DNA from: a virus
Virus genome (UHGV): UHGV-0112548
Length of the DNA stretch: 13,225 nucleotides
Reading direction: 5' to 3' (one strand)
The notes beneath the pieces were generated by a model, which made no database searches, was not told where the DNA came from, and worked only from the letters and a program-made list of their open reading frames with translations. Of the stretch, positions 1 to 13,225 are shown piece after piece (the first letter of the stretch is position 1; each line of letters opens with the position of its first letter). Both the position numbers and the translations under genes were made by a program.

Positions 1-77
1 TGCAGATCGTTCAGGCTGTAACGCCCATAAGCATCACGACGAACTTCAATACCATCAATGACCATCAGATTATTCAT
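1..77 (-). CDS. KilA-N domain-like phage protein, 5' end only (gene continues beyond window start)
   Basis: Minus-strand ATG at 77..75 preceded by AAGAGGAG Shine-Dalgarno; my translation is MNNLMVIDGIEVRRDAYGRYSLNDL.., open to the window edge. The IDG..YSLNDL pattern recalls KilA-N N-termini (from memory, not searched). Confidence 0.4.
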   Translation of the reverse strand, partial: MNNLMVIDGIEVRRDAYGRYSLNDL

Positions 78-96
78 ACTTCGTTTCTCCTCTTAA

Positions 97-486
97 TCAG
101 GCGGCTGCACCCGCCGTTTTCTCGTACTTACTGATAGTGATCTCGACCTTCCCTTCCGGGATAACCGGTCCCCACTCCACCAGCATTCTTTTCACCTGAC
201 TGTCGTCTTCCCACACCCCCGCGTGGGTCAGGGCGTCAAACAGCGCCTTGTTATAGTTGTCCAGATCGCGGATCCGGTTATCCGGAGGAAACAACACGAT
301 CTCCACTGAAGCAGGTGCCGACGTTGGTTTCGGCAGACGACGTAACTGCTCAACTATTGCTGCGCACGCCGCGCTCTGGAATTTTCGCCCCGCCGCGCTT
401 ATCAGGCTCTTACCAGCAAACGCCCCTTTGTTGGGGTGTCGCCAGTACGTGTTCACGCTGGGCGGAAAAGGCAGGATCAGCTTCAT
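97..486 (-). CDS. rusA: RusA-family Holliday junction resolvase
   Basis: 129-aa ORF; N-terminal LPFPPSVNTYWRH and the acidic RDLDNYNKALFDAL segment match the RusA family signature as I recall it. Start overlaps the stop of the upstream gene (483..486). Confidence 0.8.
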   Translation of the reverse strand: MKLILPFPPSVNTYWRHPNKGAFAGKSLISAAGRKFQSAACAAIVEQLRRLPKPTSAPASVEIVLFPPDNRIRDLDNYNKALFDALTHAGVWEDDSQVKRMLVEWGPVIPEGKVEITISKYEKTAGAAA

Positions 487-809
487 ACTTTCAGGCCCCT
501 CTCATGTAACCAGTGGGCTGCACGCAGCCTGGCGTTTTCCTCACCGGCAAGCAGTGAGCGGATAATCCCGACCGCCTCGCTGTCGTCGTCCTTCACCGCG
601 GTATGAAGCGTTATCCCCCGTGCCACGCCACGCTTTATCGTGATGACGCCTTTTTTCTCCAGTGCGCGAAGATGCTCCACCGCTGCATTCACTGAACGGT
701 ATCCCAGCATGGTTGCCACCTCCTGATTGGTTGGCGGGAAGCCACGTTCTTTCTGATAAGAAATCAGCATATCCAGCACCTGCTGCTGGCATTGAGTTAA
801 CGTCGTCAT
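483..809 (-). CDS. LexA-like DNA-binding-domain protein (no S24 peptidase domain)
   Basis: 108 aa; first ~70 residues (LTQCQQQVLDMLISYQKERGFPPTNQEVATMLGYRSVNAAVEHLRALEKKGVI) align with the LexA N-terminal winged helix. Protein ends after a short linker with no Ser/Lys peptidase module. 4-nt ATGA-type overlaps on both sides (806..809 and 483..486). Confidence 0.65.
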   Translation of the reverse strand: MTTLTQCQQQVLDMLISYQKERGFPPTNQEVATMLGYRSVNAAVEHLRALEKKGVITIKRGVARGITLHTAVKDDDSEAVGIIRSLLAGEENARLRAAHWLHERGLKV

Positions 810-1459
810 GCCGCCATCTCCCTGACCAGTTTTTCCGCCTGCTGGCGAACCTGCGCCAGAAAGGCCTCACCACATGCCTCAAGTTCATCGCGCCCGATGT
901 AGCTGATTGCCGGTCCCTTCCAGGTCTTGTCGAAAACAGCAATAGCACCAGCGAAGAACGCTCCTGTAGGCACCTGCTTCTCATCCTTCGGGATAAACCA
1001 GGCAGGCAGTTCAAAACCAATACGCCCGCGAATAAAAGCAATATGGTCTGCATCTTCCGGCCACCACACTTCGCTGGTGGCAGCTTTGATCAGGAAAACA
1101 TAGCGCCCGCCTTTATCACGCATGGCACTGGCATGCTTCATGATGTAACGCATGCCGGTGATGTATTGCCCCTCATGCTGACTGGCGCGGCTGTACGGGG
1201 GATTACCAAAGGCAGCACCTTTAAGCTCCGCAAGACGTTCAGACCAGTCATGCGCCAGCGCGTTGTCTTCCGCAGTGTAATAAGCGGCACATTTGGCGTT
1301 ATCACCATCAGTGAACAGATCCAGAACAAACGGGCCAAACAGGGTGTTAATTCCCCAGAAAATGTTGTCCGGCGTGCGCCACTGATCGCCCACTTCCTTC
1401 AGTTCATGGGCTGGTTTGTTCCGCAGTTCCACCAGCGCCTGGCAATATTTATTACTCAT
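806..1459 (-). CDS. phage DNA N6-adenine methyltransferase (Dam-type, NPPY motif)
   Basis: ORF contains GNPPYS (catalytic motif IV of amino-methyltransferases). Start placed at the ATG at 1459..1457, which overlaps the upstream stop as TAATG and follows a GGGGG SD; the ORF-track start at 1492 is an alternative. Confidence 0.75.
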   Translation of the reverse strand: MSNKYCQALVELRNKPAHELKEVGDQWRTPDNIFWGINTLFGPFVLDLFTDGDNAKCAAYYTAEDNALAHDWSERLAELKGAAFGNPPYSRASQHEGQYITGMRYIMKHASAMRDKGGRYVFLIKAATSEVWWPEDADHIAFIRGRIGFELPAWFIPKDEKQVPTGAFFAGAIAVFDKTWKGPAISYIGRDELEACGEAFLAQVRQQAEKLVREMAA

Positions 1460-1947
1460 TAAGCCCCCACGTAATTCCCTGACAGATACCACTCTTCACC
1501 CGATGCAGCGCGCTTGCTGCTTTTCCGTAAGCACCGCTCACGACGCGCCAGAAAATTGTTTCGTTCTGGCTGGGAGTGGCTTTCACGGAATGCCGCCATC
1601 CACACCGTTGCAGCACGACGGTATAAGCCCCTGGACTCCAGTTCTTCCGCCTGGCGGGTCAGGCACAAAATCTCCCGCGGGTCGTTAGTGCCGACATAGA
1701 AATTGCGCACAGGTCTGGTTTCACGAACTGGTTGCGGTTCCGCCTCCTGCGCTCTCTCAGTCAGACGCGGGAAATGTCTGCGTGTATCCCCTTCACAACG
1801 GTGAGCCACACGCCCACTCTGACGTAACTTGCTTGCTGACTGCAGAACGCGCTGCCGTGAGTAACCTGCAAAAGCATCCGCAATGTCTCCGGAAGTACAC
1901 CCCGGATGGGCTTCAATGAATTTCTGAACGTCATTTAACAGACTCAT
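1459..1947 (-). CDS. PerC/ANR-like regulatory protein with N-terminal winged-helix-like region
   Basis: The track ORF begins with GTG at 1953; the ATG at 1947 with a GGGGG SD 5 nt upstream is the more likely start (MSLLNDVQKF..). The C-terminal LESRGLYRRAATVWMAAF resembles the PerC/ANR helix motif (from memory). Confidence 0.45.
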   Translation of the reverse strand: MSLLNDVQKFIEAHPGCTSGDIADAFAGYSRQRVLQSASKLRQSGRVAHRCEGDTRRHFPRLTERAQEAEPQPVRETRPVRNFYVGTNDPREILCLTRQAEELESRGLYRRAATVWMAAFRESHSQPERNNFLARRERCLRKSSKRAASGEEWYLSGNYVGA

Positions 1948-1949
1948 GA

Positions 1950-2891
1950 TCACCCCCTGAATCCTGCCGGGATCTGGCTGTAGTCCACGTTGTCGTAACT
2001 GGATTTGAAGTACGGGTCTTCGCGTTTTTCGATGTACGTGCTGACGGACGGCGATAAGCGCAGGGAAAGCTCATCCCATTTTTCCCGCAGCTTCGACGGG
2101 CTGAGCACGTTACGGCACCAGAACGGATCGCGGCTGACGCGGCTGTACATCTCGCAGATTTGTTTGTGAGTACGACCATCCTGCACACACATCAGGCGAA
2201 TTTCGTTTGCCCAGGCTGTCCAGTTCGGTTCTTTGGGACGAACCACCTCGCCGTCACATTCGGCGGCCTGCTCGTACAGGGCGATGATTTTTTTCCAGAG
2301 CCACTGTGCGCAGGTCAAATCATCCTGCGTTCCCCACTGGCGCTTTTTAGGGCTGAATACAACCGCATCAGGATGGCGAGTTAAAAAATCCTGTTCATCC
2401 GTCTGCGTGTCCGGTTGCGAAGCGTCCGGACGAGAAGTTTTTTTATCTGACGGATCATGTTTTGATTTTACTGACGGATCCCCGCCAGATTCTGACGGGT
2501 GAAAACCCGCTTTTTTGCCAGATTTCGACGCATCAAATTTTGACGGGTCAGATTTTGATGCGTCAGATTTTGACGGGTCAGAATCTGACAGTTGAGAAAA
2601 TGCCGCTGCCTGAAGCTTCGCAACGTTAAGCTGATAAACATTCGACGCATTGCGGTTACCCTGGCGACGCGCCTTACGCGTTAACCAGCCTTCTGCTTCC
2701 AGCCGTGCGATAGCCGTTCTGACGGTACTCATCCCCGCGCCAATCTGGCGGGCAATGGTTTCAATTGATGGCCAGCACACACCTTCGTCATTACTGAAAT
2801 CAGCCAGGCGGGCCATAATTGCCACGCTGGATAATTTCATGCCTGATGCAGCGCAACCATCCCATACATAGCCGGTTAATTTAGTGCTCAT
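1950..2891 (-). CDS. phage replication initiator (HTH N-domain, low-complexity linker encoded by iterons, conserved C-domain)
   Basis: 313 aa; N-terminus has a helix-turn-helix-like segment (SIETIARQIGAGMSTVRTAIARLEAEGWL); the SDxSKSD linker is encoded by the tandem repeats at 2445..2591; GAGG SD before the ATG at 2891. Arrangement mirrors lambda O with ori inside the gene. Confidence 0.6.
   Translation of the reverse strand: MSTKLTGYVWDGCAASGMKLSSVAIMARLADFSNDEGVCWPSIETIARQIGAGMSTVRTAIARLEAEGWLTRKARRQGNRNASNVYQLNVAKLQAAAFSQLSDSDPSKSDASKSDPSKFDASKSGKKAGFHPSESGGDPSVKSKHDPSDKKTSRPDASQPDTQTDEQDFLTRHPDAVVFSPKKRQWGTQDDLTCAQWLWKKIIALYEQAAECDGEVVRPKEPNWTAWANEIRLMCVQDGRTHKQICEMYSRVSRDPFWCRNVLSPSKLREKWDELSLRLSPSVSTYIEKREDPYFKSSYDNVDYSQIPAGFRG
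2445..2591. repeat. iteron array (about 8 copies of a ~15-bp GATTYTGACGGRTCA-like unit) with adjacent AT-rich patch; putative origin of replication
   Basis: Read directly: units at 2445-2459, 2470-2484, 2487-2501, then four phased tandem 15-mers at 2521-2535, 2536-2550, 2551-2565, 2566-2580 and a partial unit 2581-2591. AT-rich gaagtttttttatctga at about 2433-2450. Confidence 0.6.
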
Positions 2892-2900
2892 GACCGACCT

Positions 2901-3239
2901 CTATTTCCCTGAATTTACGACGAAACTGTTCGAGCGGGCTGAAGCACTCATGCTCATAGCCTTCGCGGAGGTAGATAACCCGTTGTGTTTCCGGCTCCCA
3001 ACGAATGACTCTGACGGGCACTCCGTAGTGATCTTTGAACCAGCGGTTAACTTGTCGCAAAGGACTGTCTCCTTCTGCCGGTTGAAATCACCCACAGCCC
3101 ACTCTGCAAAGCTGTGGGTTACAATTTCCCTGTCACCTGGTACATTCACTGCATAGCAATATTCCACCTTCGCTTTTCCACCCGGTACAGGAAGCGCAAT
3201 CAGTTGCGAGCAACGGTAGTGTGTTGTTAAACTGTTCAT
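2901..3239 (-). CDS. hypothetical protein; apparent frameshift near 3060-3087 (C-terminal part continues in another frame to 2881)
   Basis: ATG at 3239 overlaps the upstream stop (ATGA). The first ~55 aa look protein-like, the frame then turns Ser-rich, while the -1 frame reads ..[42 protein letters not shown].. and stops at 2881, overlapping the initiator start. Confidence 0.4.
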
Positions 3240-3820
3240 GCGTTAGTTTCTCCACAACCAGAAGCAATCGACGCCACGACGCCCGGAGCTGCACACTCGC
3301 GGGCGTTACTCTTTTCCGGCGCACAAAAAACACGAAATAACAGTGTTAAATGCTCCTGCCACTTCGCCATTACTTGGTAGCTGTTCTCTTCGATTTGCTC
3401 ACGCTCAGCCTGGTCAATAACTCCATCAGCAGTTGCCTTGCGTAAGTACTGGGAATGCTTGCCAATCCATTCTATTGACTCCATCAGCCGCTGATTAATG
3501 TCACCATTGTCAATGTCATCAATGACCACCAGCGGCACAAACACCCCATTACTACGACGGGCTATTGCATCTGTTACATGCCTGGTACCACTGGCATCCT
3601 GTAAAACCATGGCCCACTCAAGTGGAAAAATTTGATCCCCACCGCTACGCAGTCTGTTATGCAATTGATCTTTTGCTGGGGTGATATCATCAGATTTATA
3701 CAAACCAAGAATTTCTGCTGCTTCCTCATAGCCATGAGGTAAATCAGCAATCGTTCTTCGTATTGCTGCCACCAGCCATGCTGGTTGTTTATCAACTTTC
3801 CATTCAGGTTCTTTACCCAC
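3236..3820 (-). CDS. CII-like / YdaT-like early regulatory protein
   Basis: 194-aa ORF with GTG start at 3820 and GAGGAA SD 8 nt upstream; sits directly downstream of the Cro-like gene, where lambdoid phages carry cII. Family assignment is from position and recollection only. Confidence 0.45.
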
Positions 3821-3847
3821 GGTTAATTCCTCATTTCTGTGGTGTTT

Positions 3848-4045
3848 TTATGCCGCAGCACTGTTAGTCTTTTGATATAAAGACACGTCAACTTTCAGTT
3901 TCCCGTTAGTAATTTTTTCTAACTGGTACGCTCGGCCTTCAGGAATAATCTCAGGCCACTCTGAAACAGACGGATGCTTAATACCTAGGGCTTCGGCAGT
4001 TTTACAAACTCCGCCGAAATAATTAATCACGTCGGATTTCCGCAT
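3848..4045 (-). CDS. cro: Cro-like repressor (YdaS-type HTH)
   Basis: 65 aa, divergent from the CI gene; NYFGG..KTAEALGI..SVSEWPE..IP..RAYQLE..T.GKLK matches the small Cro/YdaS-type HTH pattern; GGGAG SD upstream of the ATG at 4045. Confidence 0.7.
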   Translation of the reverse strand: MRKSDVINYFGGVCKTAEALGIKHPSVSEWPEIIPEGRAYQLEKITNGKLKVDVSLYQKTNSAAA

Positions 4046-4140
4046 TTCTGTCTCCCGTTAAATTACGTTAAGCAGAAATGTAGGATATCCAACATACCAA
4101 TGTCAAGAATCCTACATGGGCATGTGGTAGGATTGCCTAC
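4046..4140. promoter_or_regulatory. divergent PR / PRM-like promoter-operator region
   Basis: On the minus strand: TTGACA (plus 4101-4106), 18-bp spacer, TACATT (plus 4077-4082) with the 18-bp operator ATGTAGGATATCCAACAT (4078-4095) over the spacer and -10. A second symmetric element AATCCTAC-N11-GTAGGATT (4108-4134) overlaps a TAGGAT -10-like hexamer 7 nt before the cI ATG, implying a leaderless cI mRNA as at lambda PRM. Confidence 0.55.
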
Positions 4141-4794
4141 ATGATGAACATGAGTGATCGTATTCGCCAAAGGCGAAAAGAACTGAACCTGACACAACAA
4201 GCACTGGCTGATTTGACTGGTGTGAACCGTGTCACGGTTACTGGATGGGAAAAGGACGACTACCAACCAAATGGAGCCAACCTTCAAGCCCTAGCCAACG
4301 CACTTAAATGCGATCCTCTGTGGCTTGTTAGCGGAAAAGGCTCGCCTGAACCAAAGATAAATCTAAAACCTGAAATATTCGCAGTTAAAAAAGTCCCCCT
4401 CATCTCGTGGGTTCAGGCGGGTTCATGGACAATGACGGAGCCTGGTGTCAGGAAAGAAGATGCTGAAGAGTGGGTTTATACTACCGCCCTTGTATCAGAA
4501 ATGGCATTTGCACTACGGGTCCGTGGTGATTCAATGACCAATCCCCTCGGCTCACCATCGATACCAGAAGGTTCTATCGTTATCGTAGAGCCAGATATTA
4601 TTGATACAGAGTGTATTAACGGAAAAATCGTTGTTGCCCATATCAATGGTGGGCAAGAAGCGACACTCAAAAAATTTGTTGAGGACTGGCCGAACAGGTA
4701 TCTCGTCCCACTAAATCCTAACTATAAAACTATTGAATGCGGTGAGAACTGCAGAATAGTTGGTCTTGTCAAACAAGTAATAATGGATTTTTGA
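4141..4794 (+). CDS. cI: CI-type prophage repressor (HTH_XRE N-domain + S24 LexA-like autopeptidase C-domain)
   Basis: 217 aa; N-terminal HTH (LNLTQQALADLTGVNRVTVTGWE), C-terminal serine motif VRGDSM and downstream lysine (ATLKKF); divergent from cro across an operator region; no SD upstream. Confidence 0.85.
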   Translation: MMNMSDRIRQRRKELNLTQQALADLTGVNRVTVTGWEKDDYQPNGANLQALANALKCDPLWLVSGKGSPEPKINLKPEIFAVKKVPLISWVQAGSWTMTEPGVRKEDAEEWVYTTALVSEMAFALRVRGDSMTNPLGSPSIPEGSIVIVEPDIIDTECINGKIVVAHINGGQEATLKKFVEDWPNRYLVPLNPNYKTIECGENCRIVGLVKQVIMDF

Positions 4795-4815
4795 CACATC
4801 TTCCTCACTATCGCA

Positions 4816-4840
4816 AAACCGGGGTATCCCCGGTTTTTTT
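4816..4840 (+). terminator. rho-independent terminator downstream of cI
   Basis: AACCGGGG-TAT-CCCCGG GC-rich hairpin followed by a run of seven T (4834-4840), about 20 nt after the cI stop. Confidence 0.7.
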
Positions 4841-4856
4841 ATGAGCCTATCTTTTT

Positions 4857-4910
4857 ATGTAGGATAACCAACATAAACTCTTGACACTCACATGTTGGAT
4901 ATCCTACATT
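4857..4910 (+). promoter_or_regulatory. PL / OL-like promoter-operator
   Basis: TTGACA at 4881-4886, 18-bp spacer, TACATT at 4905-4910. Operator ATGTTGGATATCCTACAT (4892-4909) is the exact reverse complement of the PR operator at 4078-4095; a second copy ATGTAGGATAACCAACAT lies at 4857-4874. Confidence 0.55.
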
Positions 4911-4992
4911 TGTTTTTAGAGTAGCCGCCGGTGGCATATGAATAACCGGATGATTCGCTGACAGAAAACTTAGGTTGGGGGTAGAGGTTTAC

Positions 4993-5358
4993 ATGAATCA
5001 TTTATTCACATGCTCATTTTGCGGAGCAACCGAACTGGGAGCGATAAAGATCGTCGCAAAAGGTGGTAAGGACGAACCTGCCATCTGTTCGGAATGCGTA
5101 GTCACATGTGTAGAAAAAATGATCCTGACTAAAAAATCAGAGGCTGAAAAACCAACCTCTGATAACGAAATAATATCAGTCGATAAAAAACTATTTAAAG
5201 AGCTTCTTCAGCTTGTCCTCAACCTTCCTGATTTCGGAAGTAAGCTGGCTGCTGTTGACATTGATAGTAGCTCCACATCGACAAGTGAAACTTTTGTTCG
5301 ACTTGAGCCAAGCGATTTTCTTCTTCGTCTTAGTGCCGCACTTAGGGCATGCGGGTAA
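4993..5358 (+). CDS. small protein with ClpX-type C4 zinc finger (ClpX N-terminal zinc-binding-domain-like)
   Basis: First ORF downstream of the PL-like promoter; ATG at 4993 after a GGGGGTAGAGG SD (the track start at 4975 is an alternative). CSFCGATELGAIKIVAKGGKDEPAICSECVVTC parallels ClpX [30 protein letters not shown]; no AAA+ module follows. Confidence 0.55.
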   Translation: MNHLFTCSFCGATELGAIKIVAKGGKDEPAICSECVVTCVEKMILTKKSEAEKPTSDNEIISVDKKLFKELLQLVLNLPDFGSKLAAVDIDSSSTSTSETFVRLEPSDFLLRLSAALRACG

Positions 5359-5388
5359 CGTAATTTCCTGGTTATCAAAAGCGCCCAT
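5191..5388 (-). CDS. small zinc-ribbon protein, antisense to the 3' half of the ClpX-zinc-finger gene
   Basis: 65 aa from the second ATG (5388), which has an AAGAGGG SD about 7 nt upstream. Contains CPKCG..(18 aa)..CRCG and a Lys-rich tail. Overlaps 5191..5358 of the plus-strand ORF, so one of the two may be a shadow ORF. Confidence 0.4.
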   Translation of the reverse strand: MGAFDNQEITLPACPKCGTKTKKKIAWLKSNKSFTCRCGATINVNSSQLTSEIRKVEDKLKKLFK

Positions 5389-5481
5389 AAACATCCCTCT
5401 TGGTTGTGTGAGAACACCAAGATACCACCGCGCCTGATGTGGTTAAAAGCAGGCTAAAGCAATAACAAGTAACTCCCTGTT

Positions 5482-5531
5482 CTGGCGGCCCGGTGTTTTC
5501 CCGTGTATTTCCGGTAACCGCCAGCCTTTTT
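5482..5531 (+). terminator. putative terminator-like hairpin (tL-like) in the leader upstream of rdgC
   Basis: CTGGCGG (5482-5488) pairs with CCGCCAG (5519-5525) around a ~30-nt loop, followed by CCTTTTTC. The loop is long for a classic terminator. Confidence 0.3.
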
Positions 5532-5536
5532 CAGGG

Positions 5537-5648
5537 CACAACAGAAAAGGGCATCACCGGGCGACGGGCTCATAACCCAATCCACCCGGGCAAAAAGAAA
5601 GCGGTCTCTGCAAGCCGCCGACCAATGCAGGTGCCCTTCTCTGTTGTG
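5537..5648. other. long-range inverted repeat (17 bp, one mismatch) enclosing ~78 nt; predicted long RNA stem in the early-left leader
   Basis: CACAACAGAAAAGGGCA at 5537-5553 versus TGCCCTTCTCTGTTGTG at 5632-5648 (reverse complement CACAACAGAGAAGGGCA). Confidence 0.4.
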
Positions 5649-5700
5649 TATGGAGAAACTAACTTTTTAGCGCCGGTGCAGAGGCGTTGAGGAACCGAGA

Positions 5701-6618
5701 ATGAACAATCCGTTTTTCAAAAATATGTTGGTGTATCGCATTAGTCGCGATTTCACCATCAACCAGGAAGAGCTGGAACAGCAGCTTGAACTATTTCGCT
5801 TCACTCCATGCGGTAGCCAGGATATGGCAAAAACCGGTTGGGTATCACCACTTGGTCAGCTGTCAGATCGCTTGCATCACACTGTCAATAATCAAGTGTT
5901 GTTGGTTATTCGCCGGGAAGAAAAAATACTGCCATCTCCTGTCATTGCTGAAGAACTGCGCAAGCGTGTGTCGCGTCTGGAATCCGATCAGGGGCGTCGC
6001 CTCAAAAAAACTGAGAAAGATTCGCTGCGTGATGAAGTGTTGCACTCCCTGCTTCCTCGGGCGTTCTCCAAAAACTCGACTGTTAGTTTGTGGATCAACG
6101 TCACCGACGGTCTGATCATGGTTGATGCAGCCAGCGCTAAACGTGCCGAAGACTCACTGGCCCTGCTTCGTAAAACTCTCGGTTCTCTCCCGGTGGTACC
6201 GCTGACTATGGAAACGCCGATCGAACTAACTATGACCGAATGGGTTCGTTCCGGTAGTGCGCCTGCTGGCTTTGGCCTGGGTGATGAAGCCGAACTGAAA
6301 GCTATTCTTGAAGATGGCGGTATTGGACGCTTTAAAAAACAGACTCTGGTCAGTGACGAAATTCATGTGCATCTGGAAGCTGGCAAAGTAGTTACAAAGC
6401 TGTCTATCGACTGGCAACAGCGCATTCAGTTCGTTCTTTGCGATGACGGCAGCATCAAACGCCTTAAGTTCTCTAATGAGATTACAGAACAAAACGACGA
6501 TATCGACCGTGAGGATGCGGCTCAGAGGTTCGACGCTGACTTTGTTCTGATGACCGGCGAGCTTATCTCTCTCATTAACGGATTAACAACCTCTCTCGGC
6601 GGCGAAGCCAAGCGATAA
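5701..6618 (+). CDS. rdgC: RdgC-family recombination-associated protein (prophage-borne paralogue)
   Basis: 305 aa; [62 protein letters not shown] and [14 protein letters not shown] track E. coli RdgC along its full length as I recall it. GAGGAA SD before the ATG. Confidence 0.85.
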
Positions 6619-6726
6619 ACACCAGGCAACAATTACCCCCATAAGCATGGGTTGGGTTGCTGCACGCTAAATTCAGCAATTCATTAATTTAATGGCGCGG
6701 TGCAGCGCGCCAATATGGAGAAAACC

Positions 6727-7266
6727 ATGAGCTACATTCAGACATTATCCGGCAAACATTTTAATTACCTCGATATCCAACAGGACGATATCGTGATCGA
6801 GGATATTGCTACCGCGTTGTCTCATATCTGCCGCTTTGCAGGGCATCTTCCTGAGTTTTACAGCGTCGGCCAGCATAGCGTTTTAACCAGCCATCTCGTT
6901 CCGCAGGAGTTTGCCTTAGAAGCACTGCTTCATGATGCCGCCGAAGCCTACCTGCAAGATATTCCCTCACCGCTTAAGCGCCTGTTACCGGATTACCAGG
7001 TGATCGAAGCTCGCGTAGACGCTGCTATTCGCCAGAAATTTGGCCTACCGACGGAGCAACACCCAACAGTGAAATATGCCGATCTGGTGATGCTCGCCAG
7101 CGAACGCCGCGATTTTGAGATTGACGAAGGTTCCGTGTGGCCATGCCTCGATGGCGTTGTCCCGACGGACCTATTCATCATCAATCCAGTTCGTCCAGGC
7201 CAGTCATACGGCATGTTCATAAATCGCTTTAATGAGTTGATGGAGCAGCGTCAATGCGCCGCATGA
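6727..7266 (+). CDS. HD-domain phosphohydrolase (YfdR-like 5'-deoxynucleotidase class)
   Basis: His at LSHICRFAGH and the HD dyad at EALLHDAAEAY fit the HD superfamily. Start chosen at the ATG at 6727 with GGAG 6 nt upstream; the track start at 6700 is a GTG. Confidence 0.6.
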   Translation: MSYIQTLSGKHFNYLDIQQDDIVIEDIATALSHICRFAGHLPEFYSVGQHSVLTSHLVPQEFALEALLHDAAEAYLQDIPSPLKRLLPDYQVIEARVDAAIRQKFGLPTEQHPTVKYADLVMLASERRDFEIDEGSVWPCLDGVVPTDLFIINPVRPGQSYGMFINRFNELMEQRQCAA

Positions 7267-7430
7267 AGGTAAAAGAACTCGTGGCGGAGGCGTTTGCCTC
7301 CGTGGCTGAATTGCCACCAAAGCATGCATCGCTTATGCGCGAAGTCGCTACCAGGCTTGAAGCTACGTTCGCAGCATTAACCGAATCATTGGCGCAACTG
7401 GAACAGGAACGTAAAGGTAAAACGCAATGA
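7254..7430 (+). CDS. hypothetical small protein (58 aa)
   Basis: Not in the ORF track (under 60 aa). My translation: MRRMKVKELVAEAFASVAELPPKHASLMREVATRLEATFAALTESLAQLEQERKGKTQ. Start overlaps the HD-gene 3' end and the stop overlaps the next ATG as ATGA, consistent with translational coupling. Confidence 0.35.
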   Translation: MRRMKVKELVAEAFASVAELPPKHASLMREVATRLEATFAALTESLAQLEQERKGKTQ

Positions 7431-7681
7431 CCGTATTTGAATATCTCCAGGGCCACCCGAACGCCACCAGCGGTGAAATCGCAAGGGCGATGGGTAAAAA
7501 GACGCCAGCCGTAGCCAGCGCACTATCTCAGCTTTATGCAACAGGGAGAATTGTTAAGTCTGGCGCACGCGGTGGGATACCGACATACCGCGTCAATGAT
7601 CTGCCGTTTGGATGCAGCAATAACTTAACGCTGATATTTAACCAGCTTCTGCGAAACGTCCGCAAAGGAGCAGCCCAATGA
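7427..7681 (+). CDS. small winged-helix-like DNA-binding protein
   Basis: 84 aa; SGEIARAMGKKTPAVASALSQLYATGRI has the helix-turn-helix / wing pattern; ATGA overlaps at both ends. Confidence 0.45.
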   Translation: MTVFEYLQGHPNATSGEIARAMGKKTPAVASALSQLYATGRIVKSGARGGIPTYRVNDLPFGCSNNLTLIFNQLLRNVRKGAAQ

Positions 7682-7995
7682 GCAAATTTACGGCATTACC
7701 AGTAGAACGCGACCAATACGGCTACTGGACTCACCCCGTCTATGAGCAATTTTGCGATGGTCGTGAATTTATCTCACCTGATGAGTTCAACGCCTGGCTG
7801 GATAAAAACGGCCTCGAATGGACGGTAGTTTACCGGGATGAAGAAGACATCGATCCTGAAGTTGATGGTTACGATATTTCAGCCTGGCAGCCAGAATCGC
7901 CAGCCGGTGAAGGTTGGTTTGTCGGTTCAATTCACAACACCGAAGATGGCGCGGTATGCATCTGGTTACGTAACGTTGAAGGCGGTGCAGCATGA
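7678..7995 (+). CDS. hypothetical phage protein
   Basis: 105-aa ORF, coupled to neighbours by ATGA overlaps; acidic, no motif I recognise. Confidence 0.5.
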   Translation: MSKFTALPVERDQYGYWTHPVYEQFCDGREFISPDEFNAWLDKNGLEWTVVYRDEEDIDPEVDGYDISAWQPESPAGEGWFVGSIHNTEDGAVCIWLRNVEGGAA

Positions 7996-8750
7996 CAGTC
8001 CATACACTGAAGCAATGCCGCCCGGACCAAGAAGAAACCGAGTATTTCTGGAAGTTGTTTCATGCGGCACAACGGAATGACGCTCGCTGGCACGGTAGTG
8101 AAATCAGCATTATCGCCGATGAACTATCCCGGACGGATTTAGATCGTAATCAAAAACTGTTTCTTCTCCGTGCCTGGCAAGTGCTGGTAGACGACAAAGG
8201 TGGATTCGGGCGCTTGATGGGTGCCTTTGATACTTACGTCTACAACATGCAGGACCCTGATGATGACTGCGTAGCCTGGAAGCCTGAACTGGCTAAGCTG
8301 CTACAGGATGGCAATCTGTTTGATGTTGTGCTGACGGCATATCAGGAGGCCTGCCATGAGGGGATCGTTAATTGGGAGGCAGCGGTATCTCTTTCTGAGG
8401 AAAACGTAGAACTGAAGCGCAAACTCTACGCAGCAGAGAATCAAATAGCAGAACTGGAGGCGCGGACGTTCAATCCTGCAATTCTAGATGTGATAGCAGA
8501 GCGCCAGCGGCAGAAAGCCGTTGAGGGCTGGACGTCTGAGCATGACGACGCCTATCAAAACAGTGAGCTGGCAGATGCTGCAGCTTGCTATGCGATTAAC
8601 GCACACAATCAAGGCCTCTCAACGCCAGCGCATTGGCCGTGGGCTCCTGATTGGTGGAAGCAATCTGGGCCGCGTCGTGACCTTGTGAAAGCTGGCGCAC
8701 TTATTCTGGCCGAAATTGAACGCATAGACCGCCAGGAGGCCGCCCAATGA
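7992..8750 (+). CDS. hypothetical phage protein with central coiled coil (possibly Ead/Ea22-like)
   Basis: 252 aa; coiled-coil segment NVELKRKLYAAENQIAELEART; C-terminal WTSEHDDAYQNSELADAAACYA. The family label is a recollection only. Confidence 0.5.
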   Translation: MTVHTLKQCRPDQEETEYFWKLFHAAQRNDARWHGSEISIIADELSRTDLDRNQKLFLLRAWQVLVDDKGGFGRLMGAFDTYVYNMQDPDDDCVAWKPELAKLLQDGNLFDVVLTAYQEACHEGIVNWEAAVSLSEENVELKRKLYAAENQIAELEARTFNPAILDVIAERQRQKAVEGWTSEHDDAYQNSELADAAACYAINAHNQGLSTPAHWPWAPDWWKQSGPRRDLVKAGALILAEIERIDRQEAAQ

Positions 8751-9139
8751 GCAACATCAACAAACGCGCAACAGAGATGCTGATTGAAAACGGAGTGCTG
8801 GTTGCCGACACGCTGAGGCGTTTGGCTGATAACGAAATCGACTCCGATTACTTTGCTATTTGCCACACAAACGAAAACGGAACTGAAATTGAATGCGAGC
8901 TGGCAATTACAGATTACGCACGCCAATCTGCTGGAATCGTTGATGATCTGGTAAATGCGCTGGAAGCCGCAGAGAAGCGCATTGCAGAACTGGAAGCGCG
9001 GGAAATATCGCTCCCAGAACTTAGCAGCATGCTTCATCGAACAGATTTTCACGAGGATTACCAAACGGTAATGGCATACAAAGTTTCTGAGGTCATCGCT
9101 GCAATCCGCGCCGCTGGCATTCGCATCAAAGGAGAGTGA
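8747..9139 (+). CDS. hypothetical phage protein with coiled coil
   Basis: 130 aa; AEKRIAELEARE repeats the motif of the upstream gene; ATGA coupling at the start. Confidence 0.5.
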   Translation: MSNINKRATEMLIENGVLVADTLRRLADNEIDSDYFAICHTNENGTEIECELAITDYARQSAGIVDDLVNALEAAEKRIAELEAREISLPELSSMLHRTDFHEDYQTVMAYKVSEVIAAIRAAGIRIKGE

Positions 9140-9140
9140 T

Positions 9141-9575
9141 ATGGCGTTAACACACCGCGAACTCTGTCAGATTGCGTACAAGTTCCTTAAGCGCAACGGG
9201 TTCAAGGTTTGTTTTCATGACCGCTTTATAGCTGTAACCAGTACCGGAGAACAGCCAGATGCTATGGGATTCAGAAATTCAGCATCATGCCTGATAGAGG
9301 CGAAATGTTCTCGTGCTGACTTGTTGGCAGATAGAAAAAAGCGTTTTCGTAAAAATCCGTCTCTTGGAATGGGCGACTGGCGATTCTTTATTAGTGAGCC
9401 GGGAATTATTTCAATTGAGGATTTACCACCTGGCTGGGGATTACTTCACGTTGTTAACGGAAGAGTACGGAAAGTGCATGGGTGCCCAAGGGTAATTGCT
9501 GTTGGGGTAATCCTGACGATAAGCCATTTACTGGAAATAAGCAGGTTGAATGCGATTACATGTTATCTGCATTAA
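9141..9575 (+). CDS. PD-(D/E)xK nuclease-fold protein (VRR-NUC-like); C-terminus possibly frameshifted
   Basis: GEQPDAMGF followed by CLIEAKCS gives a PD...(E)xK arrangement. After about residue 105 the frame looks poor, while another frame (9458..9655) reads protein-like and ends in ATGA overlap with the next gene. Confidence 0.5.
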   Translation: MALTHRELCQIAYKFLKRNGFKVCFHDRFIAVTSTGEQPDAMGFRNSASCLIEAKCSRADLLADRKKRFRKNPSLGMGDWRFFISEPGIISIEDLPPGWGLLHVVNGRVRKVHGCPRVIAVGVILTISHLLEISRLNAITCYLH

Positions 9576-9651
9576 GGCGCATGGAGTTGAGAGGGCACCT
9601 TAATGAAATATATGACGGTGTAATTGTTAATAAGAAAGAAGGAAACGCGGC

Positions 9652-10353
9652 ATGATCACTATTACCAAAGAGCGACTGCTGACAATCAAGCAGTGGCGCG
9701 AAACATACGGACCTGGTAGCAACGTTGTACTGCCAGCAGAAGAAGCGGAAGAACTGGCACGAATTGCTCTGGCATCGCTGGAAGCAGAGCCTATTGGTGA
9801 GGTTTCAGAGAAGCGACTCGGCCTTGTTATGGATGGAACGGTAGACCTTGGCGGGAAATCAACTTATCGCATCATTAAGGGAGAAAAAGCGATGAAGTTG
9901 TTGCCGCTGGGGACGAAGTTTTATGCCGCCCCTCCAGTGCCAGTAGTACCGGAAGAAAAACCAATGCCTAACCCTCTTAAAATGTACGCGGTTGATGCTG
10001 TTGCCGCTATTGCAGAGGTGAGAGGCTGGAACGCCTGTCGTGCCGCTATGCTTCAGGGTAAATCCGAACAACCACAAAACGCACAACAAAATATTCCGGA
10101 AAATATTCACGGTGGCAACTCTCCGGTAACTCCGGATGGTTGGATAAGCTGTAGTGATCGAATGCCGGAAAAGAATCAGAACGTGCTTATTTCAGTGAAT
10201 TTCGATAGCTCTCTGGTTGAACCGCTAATATGCTCCGCACGCTATACCGGAAGCACCTTTCGGCGCGGAGATGCAACGATTAAGCCGGGTAATGGTATTG
10301 AGCAAGCAACTCACTGGATGCCGCTACCGGAACCGCCGCAGGAGGTGAAGTAA
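9652..10353 (+). CDS. DUF551-like phage protein
   Basis: 233 aa; C-terminal DGWISCSDRMPE ... ATHWMPLPEPP resembles the conserved end of DUF551-family phage proteins (from memory). Confidence 0.55.
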   Translation: MITITKERLLTIKQWRETYGPGSNVVLPAEEAEELARIALASLEAEPIGEVSEKRLGLVMDGTVDLGGKSTYRIIKGEKAMKLLPLGTKFYAAPPVPVVPEEKPMPNPLKMYAVDAVAAIAEVRGWNACRAAMLQGKSEQPQNAQQNIPENIHGGNSPVTPDGWISCSDRMPEKNQNVLISVNFDSSLVEPLICSARYTGSTFRRGDATIKPGNGIEQATHWMPLPEPPQEVK

Positions 10354-10925
10354 TGAATAACTTAATGATCGACCTTGAGACGATGGGGAAAAATAAGGAT
10401 GCACCGATCGTTTCCATTGGCGCGGTGTTCTTCACTCCAGAAACCGGAGACATCGAACAAGAATTCTATACGGTTGTTAGCCTGGAAAGTGCTATGGAGC
10501 AAGGAGCTACACCTGACGGCGATACCATCCTGTGGTGGTTGAAACAGAGCTCTGAAGCACGAGCTGCAATCTGTATTGATGATACTTTGTCGATCAGCGA
10601 TGCACTCTCTGAACTGAGCCATTTCATTAATCAGCATGCAGACAATACAAAATATTTAAAAGTCTGGGGTAACGGGGCCACCTTCGACAACGTAATTTTA
10701 CGTGGAGCTTACGAGCGAGCAGGACAAATCTGCCCGTGGGCGTACTGGAATGACCACGATGTACGCACGATCATTACGCTTGGGCGTTCCATCGGATTCG
10801 ACCCAAAAATGGACATGCCTTTCGATGGCGAACGGCACAACGCCCTGGCTGATGCCCGTCATCAGGCAAAATATGTTTCCGCTATCTGGCAGAAACTAAT
10901 TCCTGCCACCAGCACAGAATTATGA
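10353..10925 (+). CDS. DEDD-type 3'-5' exonuclease
   Basis: 190 aa; Exo I motif MIDLETMG, mid-protein VWGNGATFDNVIL, C-terminal HNALADARHQAKY (H-x4-D), the DEDDh pattern. Start overlaps the upstream stop as TAATG. Confidence 0.7.
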   Translation: MNNLMIDLETMGKNKDAPIVSIGAVFFTPETGDIEQEFYTVVSLESAMEQGATPDGDTILWWLKQSSEARAAICIDDTLSISDALSELSHFINQHADNTKYLKVWGNGATFDNVILRGAYERAGQICPWAYWNDHDVRTIITLGRSIGFDPKMDMPFDGERHNALADARHQAKYVSAIWQKLIPATSTEL

Positions 10926-10961
10926 TTTTCCCGGGTGCAGCCGGTTTTGATGGAGAAAATT

Positions 10962-11243
10962 ATGAACACCTTGTTTTTACTGATGGCTGAATTCAATACC
11001 CCTAACATTGAACTCTCAGCAGTTAGCCAGAAGTACTTTGGCATGAGTCCAGCCACGGCAGAAGCAAAAGCAAACGCTTGTAAGTTGCCCGTTCCAACAT
11101 ATCGCATCGGCACATCACAAAAAGCAAAACGTTGCATCAATATTCAGGATCTTGCGGAATACATAGACAAAAGACGAGAAGAAGGACGTATCGAGTGGGA
11201 ACAGGTCAGAACAGGCAAACAGAAGGGCAAAGAACATCACTAA
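10962..11243 (+). CDS. PrtN / excisionase-like small DNA-binding protein
   Basis: Start at the ATG at 10962 with GGAG 6 nt upstream (MNTLFLLMAEF..); resembles PrtN-family proteins as I recall them; last gene of the plus-strand operon. Confidence 0.5.
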   Translation: MNTLFLLMAEFNTPNIELSAVSQKYFGMSPATAEAKANACKLPVPTYRIGTSQKAKRCINIQDLAEYIDKRREEGRIEWEQVRTGKQKGKEHH

Positions 11244-11275
11244 AGAAAAAACCCGCCTGAAGGCGGGTTTTCAAA
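11244..11275. terminator. bidirectional rho-independent terminator
   Basis: A-run (11244-11251), stem ACCCGCC (11251-11257), loop TGAA, stem GGCGGGT (11262-11268), then TTTT. Serves the plus-strand operon and the convergent minus-strand gene. Confidence 0.7.
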
Positions 11276-11290
11276 AAGCACCAGCTATGA

Positions 11291-11464
11291 TCATGCTGCT
11301 TTGCGACGACGAAGCTTACCCTGCTGCTCTTTACCAGAGACAGTAGCGTGAGTGAACGCATTAGGAGCAGCCTTCATCAGAACTTCAACAGCAGCACCCA
11401 TACCTGCGAATGCTTTCATTGTGTCGAACTTAACCTGTGGCTTGGTTGCTTTTTGATCTTTCAT
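11291..11464 (-). CDS. hypothetical small basic protein (57 aa)
   Basis: Not in the ORF track. ATG at 11464 with GGGAG SD 6 nt upstream. My translation: MKDQKATKPQVKFDTMKAFAGMGAAVEVLMKAAPNAFTHATVSGKEQQGKLRRRKAA; stop at 11291-11293. Confidence 0.45.
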   Translation of the reverse strand: MKDQKATKPQVKFDTMKAFAGMGAAVEVLMKAAPNAFTHATVSGKEQQGKLRRRKAA

Positions 11465-11660
11465 AGAAAACTCCCGAGACAGTAAAGGCGTCTCTAACCC
11501 TCTCTTTAAAGCTAGCTTGTTTCGCTAACTTATGCCAATCGATCATGTCGATTGGTGACATCGTTTCTTAGTAGTTTAAGCACAAAACGACTGCCATAGA
11601 TGTACCTTTAAGGTAATCTGGACGGGTATCCTACAATTTGTAGACCCTTCTCGTCTATAC

Positions 11661-12197
11661 CTACTGAGCAAATTTAAGAAAGATATCCTGCAGCTCATCA
11701 ATGACTGCAGACATCACATAACCGCACTGTTCCATGCGGAAACCAAAAGACTCGTAATACTGCACCAGTTCTGGTACTGGCTCTACAATGTGGACAACTT
11801 TACATTCAACAGCTTTACAAAATATAAAAGCACTCATAAGAGTGAGTAAAACCATGCGCCCTTTCAATGGGTGAGATTCATCTTCTCTAGAAAACCTTTC
11901 GATCATATGGATACGAAAGATGTTTTCTTCAACCCCATAAACACAAATTGCTGCTCCTGATGGTATTCCCTGAACCCGACCTTGCTGAACAAGTTTTATG
12001 CAGAACTCATACTTTTCTCTGGAGTTGCCATAGGTGCTTAACGCATAGTCCCATTCAAGCTCACCATAGCCACCACACAGAATCTTGTAATCATCATCAC
12101 TGAGCGGACCAACAGCAAGAGGTAAGCCGACATGATCAATAATCAACTGGATATTGTTACGTACAGATTGACCTATCTCGTCTAGGGTAAGCATCAT
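11661..12197 (-). CDS. hypothetical protein, possibly GNAT-like acyltransferase fold
   Basis: 178-aa ORF in the AT-rich segment; the C-terminal VHIVEPVPELVQYYESFGF resembles the GNAT terminal strand-helix motif, but no clear acetyl-CoA-binding loop. A TATAAT hexamer lies about 30 nt upstream (plus 12228-12233). Confidence 0.45.
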   Translation of the reverse strand: MMLTLDEIGQSVRNNIQLIIDHVGLPLAVGPLSDDDYKILCGGYGELEWDYALSTYGNSREKYEFCIKLVQQGRVQGIPSGAAICVYGVEENIFRIHMIERFSREDESHPLKGRMVLLTLMSAFIFCKAVECKVVHIVEPVPELVQYYESFGFRMEQCGYVMSAVIDELQDIFLKFAQ

Positions 12198-12737
12198 AGA
12201 CTCTCAAGCGGAACACTAAAAATCTCATTATATCTCATTCTGATGCCCGGCATGGATTACACCTTGAAATGAAAACACCGGGTTCCCAATAGGCTCCCAC
12301 AAAGTGTATAACTACTTGTTTTTCAAAAACGGTACATCCTATCGAGCATTGGTGCAACGCTAAACCGACCACTCCAGTGAACGTCAGTTTTTTCAGGCAT
12401 TGCGCTGGTTTGGTTGATTTTTTGCATTTCAGAATTACCGTGCATTTTCAAATGTAGAGATTATTTTATCGATATATCATGGGGTTATGTTATTCAGCAT
12501 CACTATTCAGGAGGCTCAATAGCGGGGTACTATACCATAACAACAGGAAGCGCCTGTCTCATTGCAAAAGAAAATTGAGATCCTCTCAAGGCATGAAGCT
12601 CTCACGAAGTGATGGAAATAATCTTATTAGCCGTTAACTTTGTTAAGGCCAATGATAAACAATCCAGGTTCGACGATAAATAAAAAATCACACATTAAAC
12701 TCTGGTGATATATCTCCCTGCTAATAGCATTGATAGA

Positions 12738-12770
12738 GAAAAAAGAACCCAATAAATATTGGGTCCTTTT
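12738..12770 (-). terminator. rho-independent terminator downstream of the signal-peptide protein gene
   Basis: Hairpin ACCCAATA-AAT-ATTGGGT (12747-12766) followed on the minus strand by TTCTTTTTTCTC (plus 12735-12746); about 40 nt after the stop at 12808. Confidence 0.55.
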
Positions 12771-12807
12771 ATATAATGCCTTCCATACTATCGAAGAACT
12801 TCACATA

Positions 12808-13225
12808 TTATTTCTCCGATTTAACCCCGAACAAATCATAAATTAATTTAGAAGTGTCTGTAAGTATTTTAATCTCTTCCTTTGAGGTTGGGTCAAACGA
12901 CTTCGCGAAGCTAATTAATTGTGGTGCAGCATCTCGCATTTTGCTTAAAATATCAGGATCGAGCGTTCCTTCATTCACCAGATGTGACATCTTATCCAGA
13001 TAGCCATCAAAATTCATTTCTCCCCCATCAGCCAGACGCTTCATCTCTCCCAGGTACTTCTTCATATCACGTTGAGATAATTTTTCAAACTGAGCTTTCA
13101 GGTAGCTCTCATTATTTTCATTAATATACACTGTTTCTGATAAATCTGCGTAGGCACTAGAATATGAAAGTGAAATTAACAGCGAAGCAAATAATTTTAA
13201 GCTGTTGTCATCATGTTCCTGGCAG
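12808..13225 (-). CDS. hypothetical exported protein, 5' end beyond window (signal-peptide-like N-region)
   Basis: The track ORF (12808..13131) starts at a GTG, but the frame stays open to the window edge with no stop; the extra upstream residues read ..NSLKLFASLLISLSYSSAYA/DLSETV.., a hydrophobic core plus AxA cleavage-like site. Confidence 0.5.
   Translation of the reverse strand, partial: CQEHDDNSLKLFASLLISLSYSSAYADLSETVYINENNESYLKAQFEKLSQRDMKKYLGEMKRLADGGEMNFDGYLDKMSHLVNEGTLDPDILSKMRDAAPQLISFAKSFDPTSKEEIKILTDTSKLIYDLFGVKSEK

Follow-up and report, generated by a model that had tools for sequence, protein, structure and literature searches.

The viral genome UHGV-0112548 was analysed as one window, a stretch of 13,225 nucleotides given 5′ to 3′ on one strand, and we consider here its last 2 kb (positions 11244 to 13225). 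A first-pass annotation, made from the letters alone, had treated this part as a single AT-rich block of three minus-strand genes beyond a bidirectional terminator. The drop in G+C content is real. The single island is not, since a phage cassette, an attachment (att) junction and host DNA follow one another in series. The explanation that best accounts for the whole, anatomy and junction included, and in which we place considerable confidence, is an accessory cassette of a prophage, followed by the crossover core in the host gene dusA and then by chromosomal DNA of E. coli.

Upstream of the block the plus-strand genes between 5701 and 11243 are coupled as described previously, with overlapping or abutting stops and starts. 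The last gene of this early-left operon, just outside the AT-rich block, encodes an excisionase (xis) of the PrtN/pyocin-activator family (10935–11243, plus strand; PF11112, E = 4e-23; phrog_1300 excisionase, E = 8e-40), and is annotated as such in phage mEp460. Past 11243 all credible genes lie on the minus strand, so the flip in orientation holds, and the two long spacers have exactly the lengths claimed, 196 bp (11465–11660) and 610 bp (12198–12807). From 11244 to approximately 12290 the sequence is a self-contained accessory cassette, or moron, in the slot between xis and the phage attachment site, attP. In order of transcription it holds a −10 box, a gene for a 178-residue acidic protein of GNAT fold (11661–12197, minus strand; mEp460 gp23, phrog_4350) that we term the acetyltransferase, a leader of about 196 nt, a gene for a 57-residue basic protein (11291–11464, minus strand; mEp460 gp24, phrog_2741, E = 8e-36) and an intrinsic terminator. 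Conservation across loci rises from about 12290 and stops at the terminator.

The terminator (11247–11272) consists of an 11-bp stem with six G-C pairs followed by a U-run, and is called on the minus strand only. The bidirectional character previously ascribed to it survives in part; on the minus strand the run comprises six or more U residues, whereas the plus strand offers only UUUUC after the stem, at best a weak signal. A stem-loop and T-run occur 3′ of the small open reading frame (ORF) in five unrelated phage contexts, with a near-identical sequence in Pseudescherichia, and each of the contexts examined has a terminator after this ORF. Because of this recurrence the structure is assigned to the cassette. 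At the other end a −10-like box, TATAAT (12227–12232, minus strand), lies approximately 30 nt upstream of the acetyltransferase start and is a candidate cassette promoter. TATAAT, TACAAT or TAAAAT occupies this position in cassettes from unrelated contexts. A promoter scan returned no more sites than chance would give, and none of them was a convincing sigma-70 promoter for the acetyltransferase or the 57-residue gene.

The element that carries the cassette can be placed with some precision. E. coli chromosomes carry the 2-kb block at 99.9% identity, and RefSeq annotates there a PrtN-family protein, followed by two hypothetical proteins, a truncated tRNA-dihydrouridine synthase and a DUF2713 protein. 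Used as a query, the block finds matches in 4380 of 5426 E. coli genomes, mostly to the host part alone. Positions 11200–12448 are 97% identical to the free phage mEp460 (NC_019716), in which the order is xis (gp25), gp24 (57 residues), gp23 (178 residues), an untranslated stretch and int (gp22), the last transcribed away. This order locates attP between gp23 and int, and therefore integration sends xis and int to opposite ends of the prophage. A complete prophage in strain 873.10 has the corresponding arrangement: pspG, intact dusA, int, dinI, tail, head, lysis, Q, replication, immunity, early-left, xis, the 57- and 178-residue genes, the dusA remnant, yjbM and zur. By these resemblances the carrier is an mEp460-like lambdoid prophage of E. 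coli.

The prophage ends at an 8-bp crossover core, TCGAGCAT (12342–12349), with prophage to the left and host to the right. It was located first by a three-way alignment of the window junction, the mEp460 attP and the K-12 bacterial site attB, and then by a four-way alignment (attB/attP/attL/attR) that added the integrase-side junction of strain 873.10. The attB sequence reads ...GTCCGTCCAG|TCGAGCAT|TGGTGCAACGC and attP reads ...GGTACATCCTA|TCGAGCAT|AGGAGCAATGC. The arms are reciprocal, the integrase-side junction having host on the left and phage on the right, and the window junction phage on the left and host on the right. The core falls on the Met-Leu-Asp codons of DusA (...APMLD), approximately 100 nt into the gene. 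Beyond the core, the attP arm of mEp460 carries the dusA 5′ end in a diverged form, which is why the megablast match to that phage extends to 12448. At the far, integrase-side junction this phage copy serves as the working 5′ end of dusA, leaving the native 5′ end stranded here. The stranded part is a pseudogene of 35 codons (MHGNSEMQK...APMLD; 12341–12445, minus strand), identical to the 5′ end of K-12 dusA and described in RefSeq as incomplete and missing the C-terminus. It runs on into phage sequence and stops at 12323. Within 12323–12451 (minus strand) the dusA start codon and native upstream region are retained, giving a chimeric ORF of 40–42 residues that ends ...SVAPMLDRMYRF before its stop codon; RefSeq marks it as a pseudogene, although it may still be transcribed toward the cassette.

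Homology and the four att sequences together establish that integration was carried out by a dusA-associated tyrosine integrase, through recombination of attP with the PMLD codons of dusA. In the strain 873.10 prophage such an integrase adjoins the restored dusA (dusA 612–1649 and int 1738–2835 of locus L115), and int is also present in mEp460, whose existence as a free phage would imply that the prophage can be excised.

From 12342 onwards the window is host DNA, identical to the K-12 chromosome. It contains the dusA stub with its native upstream sequence, and then the terminator and the 3′ portion of yjbM. The terminator, detected in a scan of both strands, is a 13-pair hairpin (12741–12770) identical to that of K-12. 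The third ORF (12808–13225, minus strand), cut by the end of the window, is the 3′ 60% of yjbM (DUF2713; PF10897, E = 5e-93, profile positions 98–235), and all 138 of its residues are identical to K-12 YjbM residues 98–235. The 610-bp spacer is consequently no mere gap; within it lie the cassette promoter region, the att core, the dusA 5′ remnant, the dusA upstream sequence and the yjbM terminator.

These observations bear directly on the earlier proposal that the three genes form one AT-rich island whose modifying enzyme and exported protein act as a toxin/immunity or defence pair. The G+C drop and the presence of three ORFs on one strand speak for it. Yet the supposed exported protein is the product of the host core gene yjbM, which lies outside the prophage and is found in prophage-free K-12. 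The signal-peptide-like N-region LKLFASLLISLSYSSAYA is internal to YjbM (approximately residues 106–123 of 235), the true N-terminus being encoded beyond the window, and the att core stands between the enzyme gene and the third ORF. The identity of YjbM and the four-way att alignment rule this proposal out, and we reject it. The first-pass annotation had allowed either a moron at the end of a prophage arm or a prophage–host junction; both are present, consecutively, as the cassette (11244 to about 12290) and the junction (12342–12349). It had also named conservation in prophage-free relatives as an observation that would count against an island, and the third gene shows such conservation, whereas the first two do not. 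The junction and the targeting of dusA are already-known biology, the third gene is ordinary host DNA, and this part of the result does no more than confirm that lambdoid prophages targeting dusA are common in E. coli, O157:H7 and O111 strains included.

The shift to AT-rich sequence is readily quantified. The G+C fraction is 0.404 in 11244–13225 as opposed to 0.498 in 1–11243, and in a sliding-window calculation every other 1982-bp window of the sequence gives at least 0.436. The phage cargo (11244–12341) has a value of 0.427, similar to the 0.432 of the prophage immunity region (3750–5250), and the host part (12342–13225) a value of 0.376, making it the source of most of the drop. The AT-richness of the block thus stems from two unrelated sources, phage cargo and naturally AT-rich host DNA. 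Since a second trough occurs at 3750–5250 (0.43, falling to 0.41 at 4751–5250), around the divergent repressor region, low G+C is not peculiar to the cargo end. A 217-residue ORF at 4141–4794 in that trough is the counterpart of a LexA-family, ymfK-like repressor.

If the exported protein is no partner of the enzyme, what is? The 57-residue protein had been listed previously, though without being tied to the acetyltransferase. In 109 of 109 acetyltransferase loci, a set that covers 40 distinct spacers and enzyme identities of 42 to 100%, a small ORF is present on the same strand 80–200 nt downstream. The 57-residue protein is therefore the true partner. The dependence runs one way; the enzyme was never seen without the small gene in the 109 loci, and the small gene occurs without the enzyme only in an alternative allele of the same slot. 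That allele is found in SKA5 and Lys8385Vzw, which have the flanks and the 57-residue gene in common with the window and in which the acetyltransferase and leader are replaced by a Panacea-domain protein (190 residues; PF13274, E = 2e-19) and a 139-residue partner. The two alleles diverge exactly at the ribosome-binding site of the small ORF. The Panacea and 139-residue genes are likely to be a PanA-PanT toxin-antitoxin pair. In SKA5 (locus L004, 2805–3793; same in L005) the Panacea gene overlaps the 139-residue gene, which gives a faint match to a membrane enzyme (ICMT), and the 57-residue ORF follows the pair after 39 nt. Among complete E. coli genomes the small ORF is present in 562, the acetyltransferase in 358 and the Panacea pair in 208, so that the two alleles cover essentially all carriers of the small ORF; the cassette itself occurs in approximately 6.6% of these genomes.

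The cassette is also mobile. It is present in some and absent from other similar phages, and occupies at least six different genomic contexts. In dusA prophages of E. coli and Salmonella it lies between xis and attP. It is found between Q and holin in Serratia and just upstream of the holin gene in lambdoid phages of Enterobacter and Edwardsiella, within the tail genes of a Photorhabdus myovirus, in the gpA–portal interval of an Edwardsiella P2-like prophage, between int and tail genes in a Morganella dusA prophage and, in Pseudescherichia and Shewanella, at what looks like the end of a prophage, with host genes alongside.

The 178-residue protein displays a GNAT α/β fold, so the likeness to GNAT proteins suggested earlier from a C-terminal motif holds at the level of the fold. 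Sequence comparisons were far less informative. Neither this protein nor ten distant relatives matched Pfam or NCBIfam (E ≤ 1), and a PDB-sequence search matched it to no GNAT. The Pfam, NCBIfam, PADLOC and PDB-sequence searches were in fact empty for both cassette proteins, and the corresponding PHROGs are families of unknown function only. In the viral structure library BFVD the neighbours are generic GNATs with TM values of approximately 0.5 and nothing closer. An exhaustive HMMER search of 1.84 billion representatives yielded just 93 cluster representatives (E ≤ 1e-3). Ten of these were sampled and had no Pfam match, and the family is small and isolated. An alignment of 30 sequences reveals invariant Glu100, the motif H109-P-L-x-G113-x-M115 and Y148-x3-G-F. 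As we read this alignment, Tyr148 and Glu100 appear to be placed where GNAT catalytic residues usually lie. His97 is invariant among the 30, but is Tyr in a 47%-identical Morganella relative and so is unlikely to be essential. In that relative (locus L116, 2302–2853) IHMIE is replaced by IYAVE, whilst E100, HPL-G-M and YxxxGF are retained. The sequence Q/R-x-x-G-x-G/A expected after strand β4 for acetyl-CoA binding is not found; the invariant H-P-L-x-G-x-M takes its place and keeps the central glycine alone. The family is uniformly acidic, with an isoelectric point (pI) of 4.3–4.9 (5.5 in one truncated member).

The partner is its opposite in charge. The 57-residue protein is basic, as had been noted, with pI 10.5, a net charge of +8 and no transmembrane segment, and its family is uniformly so (pI 9.7–10.5, 8–10 lysines, no membrane segment). 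Pfam contains no domain that matches it. An AF2 model predicts one central helix (residues 15–32) with disordered, Lys/Arg-rich tails and a mean pLDDT (the model's per-residue confidence score) of 66. The ratio of nonsynonymous to synonymous divergence (dN/dS) is 0.05–0.31, and the reading frame, ATG and ribosome-binding site are retained down to 27–45% protein identity with indels in whole codons. The values of dN/dS and the retention of frame, ATG and ribosome-binding site identify the ORF as a real coding gene, and both cassette genes are under purifying selection. Synonymous divergence (pS) is nevertheless low in the small ORF, 0.32–0.39 (0.08 for L075) against 0.62–0.96, mostly saturated, in the adjacent acetyltransferase gene, when positions 11291–11464 and 11661–12197 are compared with loci L006, L017, L024, L093, L094, L103 and L075. 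Either recombination homogenises the 3′ end of the cassette or there is an extra constraint at the nucleotide level. It could be argued from this low divergence, as a sign of constraint on RNA, and from the structured leader upstream, that 11244–11660 holds no gene and is a non-coding RNA or the 3′ untranslated region of the acetyltransferase transcript. We judge this very improbable given the dN/dS, the frame, start and ribosome-binding site kept at such low identity, the whole-codon indels and the lack of any Rfam match.

Between the two genes lies the leader RNA (11465–11660, minus strand), 196 nt in length and recognised by its folding z-score and by covariation. The minimum free energy has a z-score of −3.48 and none of 200 shuffled sequences folds as well. 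An alignment of 23 distinct cassettes prepared with MAFFT supports four hairpins, H2 (11603–11616), H3 (11536–11556), H4 (11509–11531) and H5 (11477–11495), the last just 5′ of the ribosome-binding site of the 57-residue gene (GGGAG, 11472–11476). With this structure 88.6% of cells are paired, as opposed to 22–46% when the partners are slid, and double-change cells number 36 compared with 13.7 ± 3.3 in shuffled alignments (0 of 500 reach the observed value). The compensatory changes reside in H3 and H4. With a covariance model the leader is found in every long-form cassette of the Enterobacteriaceae, but the spacers of Edwardsiella, Xenorhabdus and Shewanella are not recovered. A search of 10900–13225 against Rfam at a permissive threshold gave only sub-threshold, terminator-like matches and none in the leader.

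Two of the hairpins admit other readings. H3 is also a near-perfect DNA palindrome, CCAATCGA-N5-TCGATTGG, and could equally be an operator for a DNA-binding protein; the compensatory C-G to U-A changes fit either possibility. RNAalifold does not form H5 but pairs its 3′ arm with UAGAC, which is invariant and lies at the 5′ extremity of the spacer. The invariant GUCUC that precedes the ribosome-binding site thus has two potential partners, GAGAC within H5 (11477–11495) or UAGAC (11650–11655) after the acetyltransferase stop. The GUCUC–UAGAC pairing, as modelled, would close the whole 190-nt leader and might create a two-state switch. A small RNA, sRNA-17 of E. coli K1 RS218, has been reported in an mEp460-like prophage (PMC7719688). 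We considered whether it corresponds to the leader or the small ORF and rejected this, as the window contains neither its primer nor its probe sequences, even with three mismatches allowed, indicating a different locus.

With the anatomy, the junction, the fold, the strict linkage of the genes and the mobility of the cassette established, its function can be considered. We tentatively favour a two-protein effector/neutraliser or phage-exclusion module. The acidic acetyltransferase would be the effector, held or directed by binding of the basic 57-residue partner, and the pair, expressed from the prophage, would act as a toxin/neutraliser-like or phage-exclusion module of benefit to the lysogen. 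Transcription in the lysogen might start at the cassette's own −10 box and possibly also arise by read-through from upstream of dusA, the latter suggested by the lack of a minus-strand terminator between 12450 and 12197. The choice is guided by the one-way dependence, the complementary charge and a partner that seemingly folds on binding, and also by the exchange with a toxin-antitoxin pair and residence at accessory or defence positions. The opposite charges are maintained across the families, pI 4.3–4.9 (one truncated enzyme 5.5) against 9.7–10.5. For one of these positions, the P2 gpA–gpQ (tin/old) site, experiments have established its standing as a defence hotspot (Rousset et al. 2022, PMC9122126).

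A more elaborate form of the effector/neutraliser proposal includes the RNA. The acetyltransferase, the structured leader and the 57-residue protein might together represent an undescribed three-part toxin-antitoxin-like or anti-phage exclusion system, in which the leader would set the amount of small neutraliser relative to enzyme and which would be spread by temperate phages of the Enterobacterales and Shewanella. We regard this as conceivable, though doubtful.

Several points weigh against the effector/neutraliser proposal and its three-part extension. In its gene order, its spacer of approximately 200 nt and a partner devoid of a DNA-binding domain, the cassette departs from the GNAT toxin-antitoxin pairs already known. 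Neither cassette protein has a match in PADLOC-DB 2.0 (E ≤ 1), nor in the toxin-antitoxin models searched. The acetyl-CoA motif is degenerate (HPLKGRM), such that neither catalysis nor cofactor binding is assured. The TacT and AtaT toxins are basic; an enzyme as acidic as this one is, by analogy, unlikely to act on tRNA as they do. The −10 box is accompanied by a poor −35 element and was not called by the consensus scan, and read-through from upstream of dusA is purely inferential. With respect to the RNA, the arms of H5 are nearly invariant and show no compensatory change, leaving that hairpin unproven, and the leader as modelled is specific to the Enterobacteriaceae, the only group within which its sequence is conserved.

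Could the pair instead be an enzyme and its substrate, or a non-toxic module of lysogenic conversion? The 57-residue protein might be acetylated, or the two proteins together might modify a host protein or small molecule, altering host physiology with neither toxicity nor an anti-phage role. The complementary charges, the 8–10 lysines of the partner and the invariance of the catalytic-type Tyr148 and Glu100 are all compatible with this. In 208 genomes the small ORF is retained although the acetyltransferase is missing, so that it may have a function of its own. Many accessory phage cassettes carry conversion genes. Left unexplained are the absence of any acetyltransferase without the small gene, the toxin-antitoxin pair as alternative occupant of the slot and the relative in the P2 defence hotspot. 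The idea is possible, in our opinion, but far from compelling.

A role in counter-defence, with the acetyltransferase inactivating a host immune protein during infection and the small protein as cofactor, is an improbable alternative. Phage GNATs with anti-defence roles do exist, AcrVA5, which acetylates Cas12a, being an example, and the GNAT fold is confirmed here. However, the cassette is read in the direction opposite to that of the early-left operon, ends in a terminator of its own and occupies accessory positions associated with expression in the lysogen, which argues for prophage rather than early lytic expression, and BFVD offers no structural neighbour closer than a generic GNAT.

The papers on hotspots that were searched, PMC9122126 included, make no mention of an acetyltransferase system, and searches on the RefSeq protein identifiers and on GNAT with prophage defence retrieved nothing specific. 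The cassette is an unnamed, widespread accessory module that belongs to known kinds, the phage moron and the GNAT superfamily. Its value lies in being a compact two-gene unit, free of any family assignment in the libraries searched, that moves between unrelated temperate phages as a pair. At approximately 1 kb and well delimited, it is a candidate for screening for defence, exclusion or toxin-antitoxin activity, and may also be a case of control at the RNA level inside such a module. The strain 873.10 prophage has a second accessory-like insertion, between the Q antiterminator and holin (locus L115, 25747–28586, outside the window), that encodes an ATP-dependent nuclease and a DNA cytosine methyltransferase on the strand opposite to their neighbours.

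Comparison with known systems separates what is familiar from what is not. A family of dusA-specific integrases that leaves a remnant of the dusA 5′ end at the insertion has been described (Farrugia et al. 2015, PMC4482086). The prophage shares with those elements insertion in the 5′ end of dusA, an integrase gene adjoining the restored gene, a replacement 5′ end supplied by the element with the native remnant at the far junction, and imperfect direct repeats about a conserved core. No essential difference separates the prophage from that family, to which it belongs; the 8-bp identity core of the E. coli phage was read from our alignment and not from that work. The relative in the gpA–portal site of an Edwardsiella P2-like prophage places the cassette in the position of the P2 gpA–gpQ hotspot (PMC9122126), and the PanA-PanT (Panacea) pair is comparable as the alternative occupant of the same slot in E. 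coli. The GNAT/ribbon-helix-helix (RHH) type II systems, TacAT, AtaRT, KacAT and ItaRT, differ in that the cassette has no upstream, overlapping RHH antitoxin. Compared with the antitoxins of TacAT, AtaRT and KacAT its partner is encoded downstream after 196 nt, with a single helix and no Pfam domain.

In organisation there is a parallel with the lambdoid morons, autonomous promoter-gene-terminator insertions such as bor and lom of phage λ or stx between Q and the lysis genes. Like these, the cassette has its own terminator and candidate promoter and a composition unlike its surroundings, is present or absent among close relatives, and is located between Q and holin in other phages. It is distinguished from them by having two genes with a structured RNA between, and by the fact that the pair travels as a unit across lambdoid, P2-like and myovirus genomes.

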